In this document: one piece after another, positions 1,733 to 26,529 of the stretch
Layout: each line of letters starts with the position of its first letter
Numbering within the stretch: position 1 is the stretch's first letter
NCBI GenBank assembly: GCA_028879995.1
Contig: GCA_028879995.1_4895.1
Direction: 5' to 3' (one strand)
DNA length: 52,495 nucleotides
Origin: a phage
The notes under the pieces: model-generated
The model's database searches: none
Seen by the model: only the letters and a program-made list of their open reading frames with translations
Told to the model about the DNA's origin: nothing
Program-made: the position numbers and the translations under genes

Positions 1733-3295
1733 ATGTCGATAACCCCAAGCAGCACGCCGAACGTCGGATACCAGCGTCCTGAGCTGACTAAGAACGCTGG
1801 TAAGTACCGAATGATTAAGGACTGCATCGAGGGTCAGGAAGCTGTTAAAGCACGCGGTGATTTCTACTTGCCCCGTCCTGACCCTACGAACTGCACAGAA
1901 GAAAACATGATGCGGTATAATTCGTACCTGCGTCGCGCTGTGTTCTACAACGTACTGCAGCGAACTCTTTCGGGTATGACTGGCCTGGTATTCCAGCAGC
2001 AGCCTGAGATGCTAATGCCTGACGATATGGAAGTGCTGAAAGTAAATATCGACGGTGCAGGCATTGGTGCTATTCAGCAAATGCGTAAGTGCTTCAAGTC
2101 TGTTCTGGCTTTTGGTCGAGCAGGTCTGTTGACTGACTTCCCTAAAGCACGTATCGGTGAGTTTGGCGAGTCCATTGGCTTTACCCGTAAAGAGCTGATG
2201 GACGGAGATGTACAGCCGACAGTAACGCTGTATATGCCATGGCAGATTATAAACTGGCGAGAAGAGTATCGCAACGGTAAAGTGATGCTCACTCAAGTTG
2301 TCATTTGCGAACAGATACCGGGTGTTACTGATGGCTTTCAGCAAGACTACACACCCGTGTGGCGTCACCTTTACCTGGATGAAGAAGGCAATTGCAACCA
2401 GTCTTTGTGGGTCAATAAGGGCGACAAGAACGCGCAGAACGTCTCCGGTGGTGCGTTGTATGTCACGCAAGAAAATGTTGTCTTACGCGACTCCAATGGC
2501 TTACCGTTGAAGTTTATTCCGTTCCAGTTTATTGGTTCTGAAACAAACAGCGCTGAGATTGACCCTCCGCCGATGTACGACTTAGCTGTGCTTAATATTG
2601 CACACTACCGTAACTCTGCTGACTACGAAGAGTCATGCTTCGTAACAGGTCAACCCACAGTATGGGCGTCTGGTCTTACTGAGGCATGGGTTGAAGATGT
2701 TCTGAAGGGTGAACTGCGACTCGGTTCGTTTGGTGGTATTCCGCTGCCGGCTAACGCCGCTGTAGGTATTATCCAGACCAACCCTAACACCCAGCCGTTT
2801 GAAGCGATGAAGCAAAAAGAAGCACAGATGATTGCAATCGGTGCTCGTCTGATTCGTGAGAATGGTAAGGTAGAACGACGCGAAGTTGAGATTAAGAATG
2901 AAGCTGCATCTGAAGCTTCGCTTATCGTAACTGTTGCGCAGAACGTTGAAGCTGCTTATCGTAAAGCAATCGAATGGTGTGGCCTGTTCTACGGACACCC
3001 TAAAGAAGAAATTACGATTAACCTCAGCTACAACTTCATCTATAGCCAGTTGACTTATCAAGAACGTCAGCAACTGGTTAACGAATGGATTGCCGGTGCT
3101 ATCACGTTTAGTGAGATGCGTAGCAATCTTAAACAGGCTGGCATTGCTAAGCTCACCGACGAAGAAGCCAAGAAGCTAATTGATGAAGAGCTGGCTGAAC
3201 GCGATGCGCGTGAGGTAGCAAAAGAAGCAGAAAAGAACGCTCAAGCAGCTAAGAACAGCGATGGGCAGGAAAATAATCCAGAAAAAACTGAATAA
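1733..3295 (+). CDS. Portal protein
   Basis: 520 aa ORF immediately after terL (2-nt gap), acidic C-terminus; position and size. Confidence 0.7.
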   Translation: MSITPSSTPNVGYQRPELTKNAGKYRMIKDCIEGQEAVKARGDFYLPRPDPTNCTEENMMRYNSYLRRAVFYNVLQRTLSGMTGLVFQQQPEMLMPDDMEVLKVNIDGAGIGAIQQMRKCFKSVLAFGRAGLLTDFPKARIGEFGESIGFTRKELMDGDVQPTVTLYMPWQIINWREEYRNGKVMLTQVVICEQIPGVTDGFQQDYTPVWRHLYLDEEGNCNQSLWVNKGDKNAQNVSGGALYVTQENVVLRDSNGLPLKFIPFQFIGSETNSAEIDPPPMYDLAVLNIAHYRNSADYEESCFVTGQPTVWASGLTEAWVEDVLKGELRLGSFGGIPLPANAAVGIIQTNPNTQPFEAMKQKEAQMIAIGARLIRENGKVERREVEIKNEAASEASLIVTVAQNVEAAYRKAIEWCGLFYGHPKEEITINLSYNFIYSQLTYQERQQLVNEWIAGAITFSEMRSNLKQAGIAKLTDEEAKKLIDEELAERDAREVAKEAEKNAQAAKNSDGQENNPEKTE

Positions 3296-23846: not shown

Positions 23847-24389
23847 ATGACTAAGCATAAGGTGTTCCGTAACTTTACCATGTACCATCCTGAGGTAACA
23901 GAAGAGAACGAGAACATTGTAAATGCTGGTGCAATCTTCCTCAAGGATGAGGAAGGTCGCGACTGGTATAATCTCGCAAAAGAGTTCGCTGTCAAATACG
24001 AAGGTGCAACGTTCTTGCAGGTAGATAAGAACGGAGTTGTAATTGCTGCACATACCGACCCAACTATGTTCCATCCTGTGGGTTGCGATATGGTTGTAAC
24101 GTACGACCCGCCTTTCAACATCTTCGAGACTGTTGGCGAATGGCTGTTCGACGGTAAAGAGTTTACGCTTAACGCACCAATGATGAAGGAGATTGCTCGT
24201 GAGCGTAAAGAACAAGCTCTGTCCATCGCTTCGACCAAGGTAAGTGTTTTACGCGACACAGTTGATAGTGGCAATGCTACCGATGAAGAAAAAGAGCTAT
24301 TTGCTAAATGGCGTGATTACAGGATTGCTGTCAATCGTCTTGACATTAACCTTGGTTCCGCTATGGTTGTTCCACCTATGCCGGAGTAA
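23847..24389 (+). CDS. Putative tail fiber assembly chaperone, paralog 1
   Basis: 180 aa; clear similarity to the next ORF (N-terminal F.NFT.Y.P, W..LAKE, FPV.CD motifs). Confidence 0.4.
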   Translation: MTKHKVFRNFTMYHPEVTEENENIVNAGAIFLKDEEGRDWYNLAKEFAVKYEGATFLQVDKNGVVIAAHTDPTMFHPVGCDMVVTYDPPFNIFETVGEWLFDGKEFTLNAPMMKEIARERKEQALSIASTKVSVLRDTVDSGNATDEEKELFAKWRDYRIAVNRLDINLGSAMVVPPMPE

Positions 24390-24392
24390 ACC

Positions 24393-24896
24393 ATGCAACT
24401 GTCATTTTTCAACTTTACAGAATACAACCCACAAAGGACGGCGGAGACACTTCCGCTGATTAAGCAAGGCGTTGTATTCATCAAGGATAACAATGGTAAT
24501 GACTGGCGCAAGCTGGCTAAAGAGCTGGCTAAGAATAAAGAGCTGGTTCATTATATTGTTGTGGACAAGTACAATGCTGTTGCCGCGTATGCTAACGATC
24601 CTACACTACTGTTTCCTGTTAATTGCGATTTGCATATTGTTGAGTCTGTCCCTGCTGCTAAGTTTGCGGATTGCTATTACGAATGGTCGTACGTTAATGG
24701 CAAGTTTGTTAAGCACTCTGAACTGCAGAAGGTGATTGCAGAAGAACGCCTGCAGGAAGAACAGGCTTGGGTTGAAGGACAACTCGACACTGAAGAAGAT
24801 GAGGAACGTATTATCGCTCTCCATAAATTCCGTGCCGATTTGTTGCTGCTTGTTATGTCAGATGCGCCGCATATCGACTGGCCTGTACGACCGTAA
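24393..24896 (+). CDS. Putative tail fiber assembly chaperone, paralog 2
   Basis: 167 aa; paralog of 23847-24389; followed by terminator 24904-24944. Confidence 0.4.
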   Translation: MQLSFFNFTEYNPQRTAETLPLIKQGVVFIKDNNGNDWRKLAKELAKNKELVHYIVVDKYNAVAAYANDPTLLFPVNCDLHIVESVPAAKFADCYYEWSYVNGKFVKHSELQKVIAEERLQEEQAWVEGQLDTEEDEERIIALHKFRADLLLLVMSDAPHIDWPVRP

Positions 24897-24903
24897 CTAA
24901 TTG

Positions 24904-24944
24904 CTACCAGCAAGCTTGTGCAGTTGCTGGTAGTGTTTCTTTTA
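24904..24944 (+). terminator. Intrinsic terminator after tail-fiber chaperone genes
   Basis: 10-bp stem CTACCAGCAA/TTGCTGGTAG, 10-nt loop, then T-rich tgtttctttt. Confidence 0.7.
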
Positions 24945-24964
24945 CGCTTGAGTCGTGCTATAAT
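24936..24964 (+). promoter_or_regulatory. Promoter-like site for the lysis cassette (good -10 TATAAT, weak -35)
   Basis: TATAAT at 24959-24964; -35 region TTTCTT; overlaps the terminator tail. Confidence 0.35.
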
Positions 24965-24998
24965 CCACTCTGGGTATACAATAAACCGGAGATATGGG

Positions 24999-25259
24999 AT
25001 GTTTGACTACAACGACAAGTCTTCCCTTATTGGCCAGTTTGTGGCTTGGGTAACAATAACAGTAAGTACTTTATCACTAAGTGATTGGGGTACTCTTATC
25101 GGTATACTAAGTTCCTTGGTGATGCTGATTGTTGTTACGTATAACCAAACACGGCGAACCAAAATTATGTCGGATTATTACAATCGTAAGAAGCCGATAG
25201 AGGATGAAGTCGCATCGAAAGAAGAGGTGTTGCGTGAGTCTGAAATCAGCAGCGACTAA
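24999..25259 (+). CDS. Holin (two TM segments, pinholin-like)
   Basis: In-frame ATG 24999 with RBS GGAG; 87 aa with two hydrophobic segments and a charged C-terminus; directly upstream of the endolysin. Confidence 0.5.
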   Translation: MFDYNDKSSLIGQFVAWVTITVSTLSLSDWGTLIGILSSLVMLIVVTYNQTRRTKIMSDYYNRKKPIEDEVASKEEVLRESEISSD

Positions 25260-25779
25260 AGGAGGTTGTAGCGTGCTCGCTATCATCGGGCTTGTATTGT
25301 CGATGACAAGTACGCATGTACGTACTAATAAAGAAGGTCTTGAAATAATCGGTAATGCAGAAGGTTGTATGCGCAACCCGTATGTATGCCCTACTGGTTA
25401 TTTAACAGTTGGCATTGGTAGCCGCATCTACAGCGATGAGCCCGCTGTACGGCGCGAAGGCCTGACAGACCAGGAGATTGCTGACCGCTGGGTCAAGAAT
25501 ATTCAAGAGGCCGAAAAATGTGTTAATGACTGGTTCCACGGTAAAGATATGAACACGAACCAGTTCAGCGCCATGACCTCTATGGTATTTAACCATGGTT
25601 GCACTAGACTCCGTAAGAACAAGGATGGTTCACCTACCAAAATATATACTGCTGCTCGTAAACAAAACTGGACTGAAATGTGTAACCGCATAACTGACTG
25701 GGATATGGGTGGTAAGTACAGGGGCTTGACAATACGTAAGCAAAAGGAAAAAGCGCTATGTCTAAAACCGGTGCAATAA
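25204..25779 (+). CDS. SAR endolysin, P1 Lyz-like lysozyme
   Basis: N-terminal Gly/Ala/Ser-rich hydrophobic segment with Cys, then VRTNKEGLEIIGNAEGC...PYVCPTGY as in P1 Lyz; possible starts ATG 25204, GTG 25234, GTG 25273. Confidence 0.8.
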   Translation: MKSHRKKRCCVSLKSAATKGGCSVLAIIGLVLSMTSTHVRTNKEGLEIIGNAEGCMRNPYVCPTGYLTVGIGSRIYSDEPAVRREGLTDQEIADRWVKNIQEAEKCVNDWFHGKDMNTNQFSAMTSMVFNHGCTRLRKNKDGSPTKIYTAARKQNWTEMCNRITDWDMGGKYRGLTIRKQKEKALCLKPVQ

Positions 25780-26087
25780 TTGCAGTTATTCTCGGCCTCG
25801 CCATTGTGTTCCTGTCTTTGTGGGTACGTGAGCTGAAAGGTGATATTATCGACCGCGACGGTATAATCAAACAGCTTAACAAGACTAATGGCGAGTTGTC
25901 TGCTGCTAATCAAACGCTGATTAATTCTGTAAAGGATGAACGTGAGGCCTCAGCCAAACGCGCCAGTAAGATAGCTGAACTTGAACAACAACTGCGTGAT
26001 AAGAAGGGTAAATATGACGAAGCGACAAAATATGATTCGTGCGCTAATACCGTTGCTCCTTCTGCCGTTATTGAACTCATGCGCTGA
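25758..26087 (+). CDS. i-spanin (Rz-like)
   Basis: 109 aa, N-terminal TM segment then coiled-coil; contains the start of the o-spanin in another frame. Confidence 0.6.
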   Translation: MSKTGAIIAVILGLAIVFLSLWVRELKGDIIDRDGIIKQLNKTNGELSAANQTLINSVKDEREASAKRASKIAELEQQLRDKKGKYDEATKYDSCANTVAPSAVIELMR

Positions 26088-26289
26088 TAAGCCTGAAGTT
26101 GTTTATGTTGACAGGGTAGTCAAGGTTTATCCGCCTGGTGCGTACCTGGTTAAATGCCATAAGCCTGAATTAACAGGTAACACCTGGAAGGCAATAGGTC
26201 AGTTAGCTATTGAACGTGGAACAGCTCTTGATGATTGTGCAGACAAGATGGACAGCATAATTAACTGGAGTAACAAAGGGGCCGAGTGA
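26014..26289 (+). CDS. o-spanin (Rz1-like lipoprotein)
   Basis: ATG 26014 with RBS AAGAAGGG; signal peptide ending in lipobox-like LLNSC; overlaps the Rz 3' end. Confidence 0.55.
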   Translation: MTKRQNMIRALIPLLLLPLLNSCADKPEVVYVDRVVKVYPPGAYLVKCHKPELTGNTWKAIGQLAIERGTALDDCADKMDSIINWSNKGAE

Positions 26290-26305
26290 TGGCCCCTTTA
26301 TTTAT
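26277..26305. terminator. Bidirectional intrinsic terminator between lysis cassette and minus-strand replication block
   Basis: Stem GGGGCC/GGCCCC with 7-nt loop, T-rich on both strands; sits between convergent Rz1 and TraR-like genes. Confidence 0.65.
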
Positions 26306-26529
26306 TAGCGTTTTCCTTTCAGCTCGTTATACTGCGCACATGCAGCACACAGCACTGTACCGGGTAAAAGCTGACGTCGTTTTTCTTCAATGTCTTCCCC
26401 ACACTGGTAGCACGTCAGCGGGCTTACTCCGGTGTATCTTACTCGGTTCGATAGTGCTGCGTCCCGGGCAACTTGTTCAGCTTCAGAAGCCATATCAGTA
26501 ATGTCCGATGTGCGCATAGTCTCAATCAT
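26305..26529 (-). CDS. TraR/DksA-family C4 zinc-finger protein
   Basis: 74 aa with CYQCGEDIEEKRRQLLPGTVLCAACAQ, matching the TraR C-x2-C...PG.TLC..C fold signature. Confidence 0.7.
   Translation of the reverse strand: MIETMRTSDITDMASEAEQVARDAALSNRVRYTGVSPLTCYQCGEDIEEKRRQLLPGTVLCAACAQYNELKGKR

Follow-up and report, generated by a model that had tools for sequence, protein, structure and literature searches.

The lysis cassette of Salmonella phage BP63: a P1 Lyz-type SAR endolysin by homology and its conserved start codon

Described lysis systems and the layout of the BP63 cassette

When the endolysin Lyz of phage P1 is activated, its Cys44-Cys51 disulfide is exchanged for Cys13-Cys44. The enzyme carries the triad Glu-8X-Cys-5X-Thr, whose Cys stays bound in a disulfide until the enzyme is activated (PMC3556154), and it belongs to class I of the SAR (signal-anchor-release) endolysins, for which class I and class II have been defined (bioRxiv 10.64898/2026.09.09.750462). 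In contrast, R21 of phage 21, which like RrrD of DLP12 is a class II enzyme (PDB 3HDE, 4ZPU), has an E-D-T triad and a SAR segment without Cys and is activated by refolding only (bioRxiv 10.64898/2026.09.09.750462). SAR endolysins are paired with pinholins, and they function with canonical holins too, as in the case of P1 LydA and LydC (both PMC9025707), so that a pinholin is not required. For the spanins, the overlapped architecture has been defined in PMC6139136.

Here, we analysed a window of 52,495 nucleotides (GenBank assembly GCA_028879995.1, contig GCA_028879995.1_4895.1), whose cassette region matches Salmonella phage BP63 (NC_031250.1) at 100% identity. The source phage is BP63, of the genus Rosemountvirus. 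Bases 24999-26289 are its late lysis cassette and consist of four genes, encoding a predicted two-TM holin, a GH24 endolysin, an i-spanin and an overlapped o-spanin. All four products have family matches far beyond chance. A first-pass annotation made from the letters of the window had drawn attention to these four genes and to three possible endolysin starts, and every feature that it quoted was found at the coordinates it gave. The cassette is of a textbook type, ordinary in its layout, and adds no new mechanism. None of the four proteins gave an informative NCBIfam equivalog, and in the literature searched we found no experimental work on Rosemountvirus lysis proteins.

The cassette is flanked by elements that can be read from the sequence. 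A probable intrinsic terminator (24904..24943, + strand) closes the upstream tail-fibre-assembly operon, with a perfect 10-bp stem (CTACCAGCAA/TTGCTGGTAG), a loop of 10 nt and TGTTTCTTTT after it; it is missing from the scan output because the scan accepts loops of at most 8 nt. It is followed by an extended -10 promoter-like element, TGcTATAAT (24956..24964, + strand), located 35 nt 5' of the holin start. We saw no good -35 hexamer for this element and the two-hexamer scan listed no promoter upstream of the holin; the record of phage S144 has a predicted promoter annotated in the equivalent spacer. At the other end, a G+C-rich hairpin terminator reported by the scan (26275..26299), which the NC_031250.1 annotation gives as bidirectional, closes the cassette, includes the o-spanin stop codon and is common to a convergent DksA-like gene.

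An endolysin of the P1 Lyz type

The endolysin reading frame is open from 25204 to 25779 and contains KSAATKGGCSVLAIIGLVLSMTSTHVRTNKEGLEIIGNAEGCMRNPYVCPTGYLT. Read as a protein of 181 aa (25234..25779, + strand), it matches Pfam Phage_lysozyme PF00959 (7.7e-20; 71.9 bits, cut-off 22.3) and a PHROG endolysin family (4e-48), and its best PDB sequence match is P1 Lyz, 1XJT (E 1.2e-42 over residues 4-178, about 47-49% identity). The alignment begins at residue 4 and the SAR segment is therefore covered. The AF2 model (pLDDT 88) also finds its best fold match in active P1 Lyz, 1XJT, with a TM of 0.80 over 175 columns, compared with 0.56-0.67 for 1XJU, the secreted inactive form. Domain match, sequence match to 1XJT and fold all place a GH24, T4-lysozyme-type muramidase domain in this protein, and the homology supports its assignment as a P1-Lyz-type (class I) SAR endolysin, in agreement with the close parallel to P1 Lyz that had been proposed at first sight. 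Among the sister-genus records, one already labels the gene "SAR-endolysin". LysSE24 of phage LPSE1 was considered as a characterised relative and set aside, being a different enzyme of 162 aa from an unrelated phage.

The predicted SAR segment covers residues 10-27 (GGCSVLAIIGLVLSMTST; 25261..25314, + strand), as judged from hydropathy, composition and the P1 Lyz alignment. Nine of its 18 residues are Gly, Ala, Ser or Thr, the basic residues Lys4 and Lys9 precede it, and its Hessa values sum to about +3, compared with +0.5 for P1 Lyz. Such a weakly hydrophobic, Gly/Ala/Ser/Thr-rich TMD behind basic residues is present when translation begins at 25234, and not when it begins at the annotated 25273. 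Within it lies Cys12 (codon 25267-25269), a Cys inside the SAR domain being a class I feature; it is invariant in all 55 aligned homologs and present in 94 of 95. The AF2 model predicts a helix at residues 14-24 that lies against the body of the enzyme, as in active P1 Lyz. Hydropathy and composition thus agree with the initial description of the N-terminus as weakly hydrophobic, rich in Gly, Ala and Ser and carrying a Cys.

The catalytic and caging motif, E43-G-C45-x6-C52-x5-T58 (25360..25407, + strand), has the spacing of P1 Lyz. Glu43 (25360-25362), Cys52 (25387-25389) and Thr58 (25405-25407) form the triad Glu-8X-Cys-5X-Thr, in which the usual Asp is replaced by Cys, and Cys45 (25366-25368), invariant and located at Glu+2, is the second Cys that could cage the triad Cys. 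C12, E43, C45, C52, C96, C123, C150 and C176 are all invariant among the 55 aligned homologs, in which T58 is conserved to at least 90%. The SAR Cys together with E-x-C-x6-C-x5-T is kept in 94 of 95 homologs, the sole exception being a truncated gene call. The SAR-domain Cys and the Cys after the catalytic Glu, both noted at the outset as shared with P1 Lyz, are indeed present and invariant family-wide, as is the triad Cys.

Compared residue by residue, C12/E43/C45/C52/T58 of BP63 correspond to C13/E42/C44/C51/T57 of P1 Lyz (PDB 1XJT, 1XJU; UniProt Q37875), with identical E-G-C-x6-C-x5-T spacing. Both proteins have the GH24 fold, a Lys-containing n-region followed by a weak Gly/Ala/Ser/Thr-rich TMD with one Cys, and all seven Cys of P1 Lyz (C12, C45, C52 and four others in BP63 numbering) are common to the two. 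There are also differences: in the HMMER pairwise alignment the BP63 SAR Cys sits 3 columns off P1 Cys13, with 2 more residues between it and VRTN. P1 has lyz ahead of lydD and an unlinked main holin, whereas in BP63 the holin comes first and overlaps the endolysin by 26 nt. Unlike its P1 counterpart, the BP63 endolysin starts with GTG and belongs to a virulent 52-kb myovirus. R21 and RrrD share with it the GH24 fold, an N-terminal SAR segment and a class II holin, but their identity to it is only about 18-19% (TM about 0.68) and the BP63 triad is Cys-based.

The start codon of the endolysin

The ambiguity of the endolysin start pointed out in the first-pass annotation is real: ATG 25204, GTG 25234 and GTG 25273 all exist. 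Comparison settles it in favour of GTG 25234, which gives a 181-aa product that retains the SAR Cys and a 26-nt overlap with the 3' end of the holin gene. The equivalent of 25234 is the sole candidate start present, as GTG or ATG, in all lineages compared. It is GTG with a GAGGTG Shine-Dalgarno sequence in Rosemountvirus and Loughboroughvirus, and ATG in fHy-Eco03, SOI901, KE25 and KM, where the frame is closed 4 codons upstream, and likewise in L008. Where a homolog has an unambiguous ATG start, its protein begins with MSLKSTATK, and the curated sister-genus records give endolysins of 181 or 187 aa with an identical 26-nt holin overlap. Furthermore, the codons 5' of 25273, which encode the N-terminal sequence found only in the 181-aa form (SLKSAATKGGCSV, SLKSAATKGGCSVLAIIGLVLSMTSTHVR), vary across relatives in ways that keep the protein: TGT becomes TGC, AGC becomes TCC or TCG with Ser kept, and there is an in-frame 9-nt indel. 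ATG 25204 was rejected as the start, being absent in SE4, L006, L007, Loughboroughvirus and the ATG lineage, and the MKSHRKKRCC that it would add is in no homolog.

The annotated start of the BP63 clade is the in-frame GTG at 25273..25275 (+ strand), used in all three records inspected, RefSeq included. Were it the sole start, as public annotation has it, the product would be a 168-aa cytoplasmic enzyme without full anchor or N-terminal Cys that needs a large-hole holin. The codon does have the strongest SD-like sequence, AAGGAGGT, at a 7-nt spacer, a better match than that of 25234, and its position 14 nt past the holin stop would suit termination-reinitiation coupling. However, the Loughboroughvirus codon is GTA and that of the L008/fHy-Eco03 lineage GTT, the SD-like string being degraded in both, and the SD-like bases are accounted for by their coding for Lys-Gly-Gly within the SAR segment. 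With the conservation of the 13 upstream codons as protein, the invariant Cys12 and the MSLKSTATK start of the ATG homologs also against it, exclusive use of GTG 25273 is very improbable, and on the comparative evidence we rejected it. The 168-aa form would have only about 14 hydrophobic residues, no charged n-region and no SAR Cys. The N-terminal segment could instead be a conventional cleavable Sec signal peptide, yielding a soluble secreted enzyme under some other control and with no SAR anchor. Its positively charged n-region, hydrophobic core and the small residues (T-S-T) behind the core fit such a peptide, but an A-x-A-type cleavage site is absent, an invariant Cys is unexpected in a discarded peptide, and the corresponding segment of P1 Lyz is retained and can be seen packed against the enzyme in 1XJT, the structure to which the model aligns over 175 columns; we regard cleavage as hardly credible.

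Given its stronger SD and its position past the holin stop, GTG 25273 may also initiate in the BP63 clade, although the main start most likely lies elsewhere. Use of both GTG codons there, giving the SAR enzyme and a shorter isoform with perhaps a regulatory or reserve role, is consistent with the good Shine-Dalgarno sequences and spacing at both, and secondary in-frame products are known in other endolysins, such as CTP1L (PMC4777826). Neither the internal start nor its SD is conserved beyond the closest clade, which points to no conserved function, and we consider dual initiation unlikely. Slightly more doubtful still is the idea that a short isoform could tune the timing of lysis. If it were true, a short isoform that was exported could, lacking Cys12 and the basic n-region, never uncage its catalytic Cys, while one that stayed in the cytoplasm would be a pre-reduced reserve; a two-start endolysin of this kind would be the lysozyme analogue of holin/antiholin dual starts. 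For GTG 25234 as the start of the SAR endolysin, the consequence is new with respect to the public record: judged by sequence comparison, annotation in the BP63 clade begins the endolysin 39 nt too late, losing the tether and the key Cys.

Holin, spanins and a proposed course of lysis

The holin gene (24999..25259, + strand; ATG at 24999) encodes 86 aa and is classed, from phrog_1350, hydropathy and remote homology, as a class II (two-TMD) holin and putative pinholin. Its match to phrog_1350 (2e-15) is to a narrow family of 7 clusters. The putative TMD1, at about residues 10-27, appears weakly hydrophobic, with a sum over residues 9-27 of about +3.5 on the Hessa scale, which is about the level of the endolysin SAR segment; TMD2, at about 30-48, is strong in the hydropathy scan and is followed by a charged C-terminal tail. 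In the records, TMHMM calls one TMD for the BP63 holin and Phobius two for that of S144. Alone, the BP63 protein reaches 12.8 bits with PF16080 (cut-off 28.8) and has no match to PF04971 at E <=1. The L009 holin, to which it is related by BLASTP (2e-9), scores 67 bits with PF16080 and 35.7 bits with PF04971, and HP1-type holins themselves exceed both Pfam thresholds. By hhalign, the BP63 holin matches HP1-type holins at 95.6%, with reversed and shuffled controls at no more than 2.7%. On sequence comparison it is a remote homolog within the HP1/P21-S class II holin superfamily (holin superfamily II), a link reached only via the HP1-type intermediates. Direct comparison gave no homology to P1 LydD, the pinholin adjoining lyz (no BLASTP match, hhalign 0.3%), and none that was significant by itself to the S21-like EssD of DLP12 (BLASTP E 0.008, hhalign 2%).

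With S21 68 and the HP1 holins (PF04971, PF16080) the protein shares a predicted pair of TMDs, a charged C-terminus, a place directly upstream of a SAR endolysin, the loop motif S-x-S-D/Q-W before TMD2 and a G-x-x-x-S helix-packing motif in TMD2. It differs from them in staying below the Pfam thresholds alone and in its C-terminal tail, which is acidic and longer and whose last stretch shares its coding DNA with the N-terminus of the endolysin. It also differs in having no dual-start antiholin: no dual-start motif was found in the gene, which has a single N-terminal Met (MFDYNDK) and no second in-frame start nearby. The suggestion that this holin fits a pinholin partner is indirectly supported by its remote HP1/P21-S homology with clean controls, from which small-pore function would follow by analogy, and a pinholin is most likely what it is. 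A canonical large-hole holin, with the endolysin mechanism the same, is a reading that we find doubtful but worth keeping in mind. P1 LydA and LydC show that canonical holins can serve such endolysins (PMC9025707), and the missed P21-S and HP1 thresholds and the absent antiholin start point the same way. Against it stand the remote class II homology, a putative TMD1 about as weakly hydrophobic as the SAR segment, and the finding that this holin lies directly 5' of the SAR endolysin at every locus inspected.

The i-spanin (Rz-like, 109 aa; 25758..26087, + strand) has a TMD near its N-terminus (residues 5-23), a periplasmic domain resembling a coiled coil and, close to the C-terminus, a Cys. It matches Pfam DUF2570 (5.6e-6) and phrog_214, Rz-like spanin (2.4e-14), and its similarity to relatives is weak. 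The o-spanin, an Rz1/LysC-like lipoprotein of 91 aa (26014..26289, + strand), matches PF23793 LysC (4e-20) and phrog_456 (9e-22) and has a signal peptide, MTKRQNMIRALIPLLLLPLLNS (...LLNS), followed by the predicted lipidated Cys23 (26080-26082). As first proposed, the spanins are overlapped: the o-spanin gene begins inside that of the i-spanin, shares 74 nt with it and extends 202 nt past its end. Such a pair, in which the i-spanin has its TMD at the N-terminus and the staggered, overlapping o-spanin a lipoprotein signal and lipobox Cys, is of the overlapped two-component type. P2 LysB/LysC-type spanins have the same arrangement, with an N-terminal TMD in the i-spanin and a lipoprotein o-spanin that begins inside the i-spanin gene and ends past it, but the BP63 o-spanin falls below the NCBIfam P2_Rz1 equivalog (14.4 bits, cut-off 27). 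A curated o-spanin homolog in S144 has the equivalent long start, whereas the BP63 RefSeq entry starts at TTG 26071 and loses the signal peptide.

The gene content, homology, residue conservation and conserved start observed here lead us to favour, as probable overall, a cassette whose endolysin starts at GTG 25234 and works by the P1-Lyz-type SAR mechanism. By homology with P1 Lyz, we infer export, tethering and disulfide isomerisation of the enzyme and, likewise by analogy, the pore size of the holin. Residues 10-27, placed after Lys4 and Lys9, would drive Sec export and, as an uncleaved signal anchor, hold the enzyme in the periplasm on the inner membrane. The tethered enzyme would be inactive, its triad Cys52 (Glu43-x8-Cys52-x5-Thr58) being locked in a disulfide with Cys45. 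On triggering, the upstream class II holin, most likely a pinholin, would collapse the proton-motive force and the SAR helix would exit the bilayer, allowing Cys12 to attack the Cys45-Cys52 disulfide and form Cys12-Cys45. Cys52 would be released and the refolded endolysin would degrade murein, and finally the overlapped i-/o-spanin pair would disrupt the outer membrane.

We believe that the practical value of these observations lies in annotation. The late endolysin start strips the membrane signal and the regulatory Cys, and the RefSeq o-spanin is without its signal peptide; such misannotated starts would mislead the cloning of these endolysins as antibacterials and the automatic classification of lysis systems. 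The start-codon problem in lysis genes has been described by Kongari et al. (PMC6139136), and BP63 is a case of the same. Furthermore, the lysis module and the adjoining DksA/TraR-like gene are also found in HP1/P2-like prophages of Pasteurellaceae, illustrating the modular exchange of lysis cassettes.

Gene content and the endolysin

Bases 24900-26300 match Salmonella phage BP63 (genus Rosemountvirus; NC_031250.1) at 100% identity, and about 45 further phages of Salmonella and Escherichia are 95-99% identical to this region. The ORF map and the sequence place four lysis genes on the + strand: a holin of 86 aa (24999-25259; phrog_1350, 2e-15), an endolysin whose reading frame is open over 25204-25779 (PF00959, 7.7e-20; phrog_7, 4e-48), an i-spanin (25758-26087; DUF2570; phrog_214, 2e-14) and an o-spanin ending at 26289 (PF23793 LysC, 4e-20; phrog_456, 9e-22), with a G+C-rich terminating hairpin (26275-26299) closing the unit. 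Two elements upstream of the holin, read directly from the sequence, suggest that the cassette is its own transcription unit: a perfect 10-bp hairpin and T-run (24904-24943), and TGcTATAAT (24956-24964), an extended -10 element with no recognisable -35. A consensus scan omitted both, given its loop-length limit and two-hexamer requirement. Just upstream lie tandem genes (23847-24389 and 24393-24896; 180 and 167 aa), both annotated as tail fibre assembly/chaperone, whose products have similar N-terminal motifs (F.NFT.Y.P.) and which appear to be paralogs.

In a search of all PDB sequences, the top match of the endolysin was P1 Lyz (1XJT, E 1.2e-42), while the next unrelated muramidases reached about 1e-8. 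The alignment covers residues 4 to 178 (counted from GTG 25234) and thus includes the N-terminal hydrophobic segment. The authentic P1 lyz gene, retrieved for comparison, encodes K2, K4 and a signal-anchor-release (SAR) segment with C13, followed by E42-G-C44-x6-C51-x5-T57; the BP63 enzyme has K4, K9 and a SAR segment with C12, followed by E43-G-C45-x6-C52-x5-T58, and the other four cysteines are common to both. In a 55-sequence alignment reaching homologs as low as 33% identity, there is no variation at C12, E43, C45, C52, C96, C123, C150 and C176, and conservation of T58 is at least 90%. The SAR Cys and E-x-C-x6-C-x5-T occur in 94 of 95 retrieved homologs, the remaining one being an obviously truncated gene call. 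Furthermore, the best fold match of an AlphaFold model (pLDDT 88) was active P1 Lyz (TM 0.80 over 175 columns, N-terminal helix included), compared with TM 0.56-0.67 for SAR-less inactive P1 Lyz and 0.68 for R21. The triad Cys of P1 Lyz is disulfide-bound until activation (PMC3556154), and class I enzymes (P1 Lyz) are Cys-dependent, whereas class II (R21) have an E-D-T triad and no SAR Cys (bioRxiv 10.64898/2026.09.09.750462). Judged by its sequence, the BP63 endolysin has every class I feature. The first-pass annotation, whose peptide strings and candidate start codons are all present in the sequence, had proposed a SAR endolysin resembling P1 Lyz, and the 1XJT match including the N-terminus, the shared cysteines and the class I features bear this out.

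The endolysin start codon

The same annotation had left the start ambiguous between ATG 25204, GTG 25234 and GTG 25273; the ambiguity is real, and conservation across relatives points to GTG 25234. All BP63-clade records inspected, RefSeq included, use GTG 25273 (168 aa), and one of them is nonetheless labelled 'SAR-endolysin, similar to Q37875'. A start there would remove K4, K9 and C12 and leave only about 14 hydrophobic residues, which would cost the enzyme its signal anchor and also its caging mechanism. As the main start it is contradicted by the comparative data: the codon is GTA in Loughboroughvirus and GTT in fHy-Eco03, KE25, KM and the relative locus L008, and the AAGGAGGT string, a lure for gene callers, decays to AAGGTGGT or AAGCTGGT in relatives, being just the Lys-Gly-Gly codons of the putative SAR segment. 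The peptide upstream of 25273 is kept despite substitutions (TGT>TGC; AGC>TCC/TCG, a two-base change that is still Ser), and a 9-nt insertion there in relatives is in-frame. ATG 25204 is absent from SE4, Loughboroughvirus and the ATG lineage. A start at the position of GTG 25234 is found in every relative: in Rosemountvirus and Loughboroughvirus it is GTG, with the Shine-Dalgarno GAGGTG, and in L008 and the fHy-Eco03/SOI901/KE25/KM lineage it is ATG; in that lineage the frame closes just four codons upstream of it. Homologs at 63-88% identity start MSLKSTATK, and sister-genus records (S144, S1, fHy-Eco03, SOI901) annotate 181/187 aa with an identical 26-nt holin overlap.

In BP63 this overlap (25234-25259) encodes both the holin C-terminus ESEISSD* and the endolysin N-terminus MSLKSAAT. 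Its DNA is almost invariant even in lineages where the flanks share no more than about 75-80% identity, and the two peptides are each conserved (ESxI(S/N)SD*; MSLKS(A/T)AT), as expected under dual coding. We conclude from these comparisons that GTG 25234 is probably the main start; some initiation may also occur at GTG 25273 in the BP63 clade, because of its good Shine-Dalgarno match and spacing.

The fHy-Eco03 record (MW602648.1, 668-1771) lists the holin, endolysin and i-spanin homologs as virion associated, verified by LC-MS/MS of phage particles. Such an association is unusual for lysis proteins, and lysate carry-over is the probable reason; those data might hold N-terminal endolysin peptides. 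In Salmonella phage SPHG1 (MW413353.1, 901-1407) the 'lysin' begins MTSTHVRTN, the upstream DNA is unrelated and EIIGNAEGCM is repeated internally near the C-terminus, suggestive of an artefact of assembly or rearrangement at a genome end.

Holin and spanins

By hydropathy, the holin has a putative, weakly hydrophobic TMD1, a strongly hydrophobic TMD2 and a charged tail. Only 7 clusters among 5.8 billion proteins make up its very narrow family; alone it falls below every Pfam holin threshold, and direct comparisons with P1 LydD and the S21-like EssD of DLP12 were negative or insignificant. In more distant class I SAR-endolysin loci from HP1/P2-like Pasteurellaceae prophages, small holins in the equivalent position score above threshold for PF16080 (HP1 holin) as well as PF04971 (P21 holin S). 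The BP63 holin matches one of them by BLASTP (E 2e-9), and the family profiles align with an hhalign probability of 95.6% over both TMDs, against 2.7% for a reversed profile and at most 0.7% for twenty column shuffles. On these matches and clean controls, we assign it by sequence to the class II holin superfamily, as a remote member. The prototype of that superfamily, S21 68, is the defining pinholin. Canonical holins also serve SAR endolysins (PMC9025707); superfamily membership and the invariable pairing with a SAR endolysin in the loci inspected make a pinholin the more likely reading, held with some confidence. A dual-start antiholin motif is absent from the BP63 holin.

The i-spanin has an N-terminal TMD, and the o-spanin has the signal MTKRQNMIRALIPLLLLPLLNS followed by a lipidated Cys. 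Of the o-spanin gene, 74 nt lie inside the i-spanin gene and 202 nt past its stop, the 'overlapped' architecture of PMC6139136, as initially suggested. RefSeq starts the BP63 o-spanin at TTG 26071 (26071-26289, 'LNSCADK...'), whereby the lipoprotein signal peptide is lost; ATG 26014 (or 26032) regains MTKRQNMIRALIPLLLLPLLNS and the lipidated Cys and agrees with the long start in the curated S144 record.

Proposed mechanism and the shared module

What the comparisons show is the gene content, the homology, the conservation of key residues and that of the start; from the P1 Lyz paradigm we infer the steps of export, tethering, disulfide exchange and lysis. The endolysin would leave by Sec with its signal anchor uncleaved and, while tethered, be kept inactive by a Cys45-Cys52 disulfide. 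Depolarisation triggered by the holin would release the SAR helix, Cys12 would attack the disulfide and free Cys52, and the endolysin would then degrade murein before the spanins disrupt the outer membrane. PP583539.1, 98.8% identical over the lysis region, was deposited as 'Listeria phage' with Listeria monocytogenes as host; this is probably a mis-assignment, such a host being implausible for a phage with a SAR endolysin and Gram-negative spanins.

A DksA/TraR-like C4 zinc-finger gene (26305-26529, - strand) converges on the cassette and is 41% identical (E 7e-15) to the gene directly after the spanins in the Pasteurellaceae prophages, where it lies on the spanins' strand (3025-3243 in locus L009, 3002-3217 in L053). 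BP63 and these prophages also share the o-spanin (E 5e-13) and the holin. It looks as if the entire module, neighbour gene included, was exchanged, and in BP63 the zinc-finger gene is inverted.

A P1 Lyz-type SAR endolysin cassette is of a well-known kind, and the label 'SAR-endolysin' already stands in sister-genus GenBank records and one same-genus record; in the literature searched we found no characterisation of any Rosemountvirus lysis protein. On sequence grounds, our analysis makes modest additions: a corrected endolysin start, with misannotation in every BP63-clade record checked, a link of the BP63 holin to the HP1/P21-S superfamily and the observation of an entire lysis module apparently shared with Pasteurellaceae prophages.
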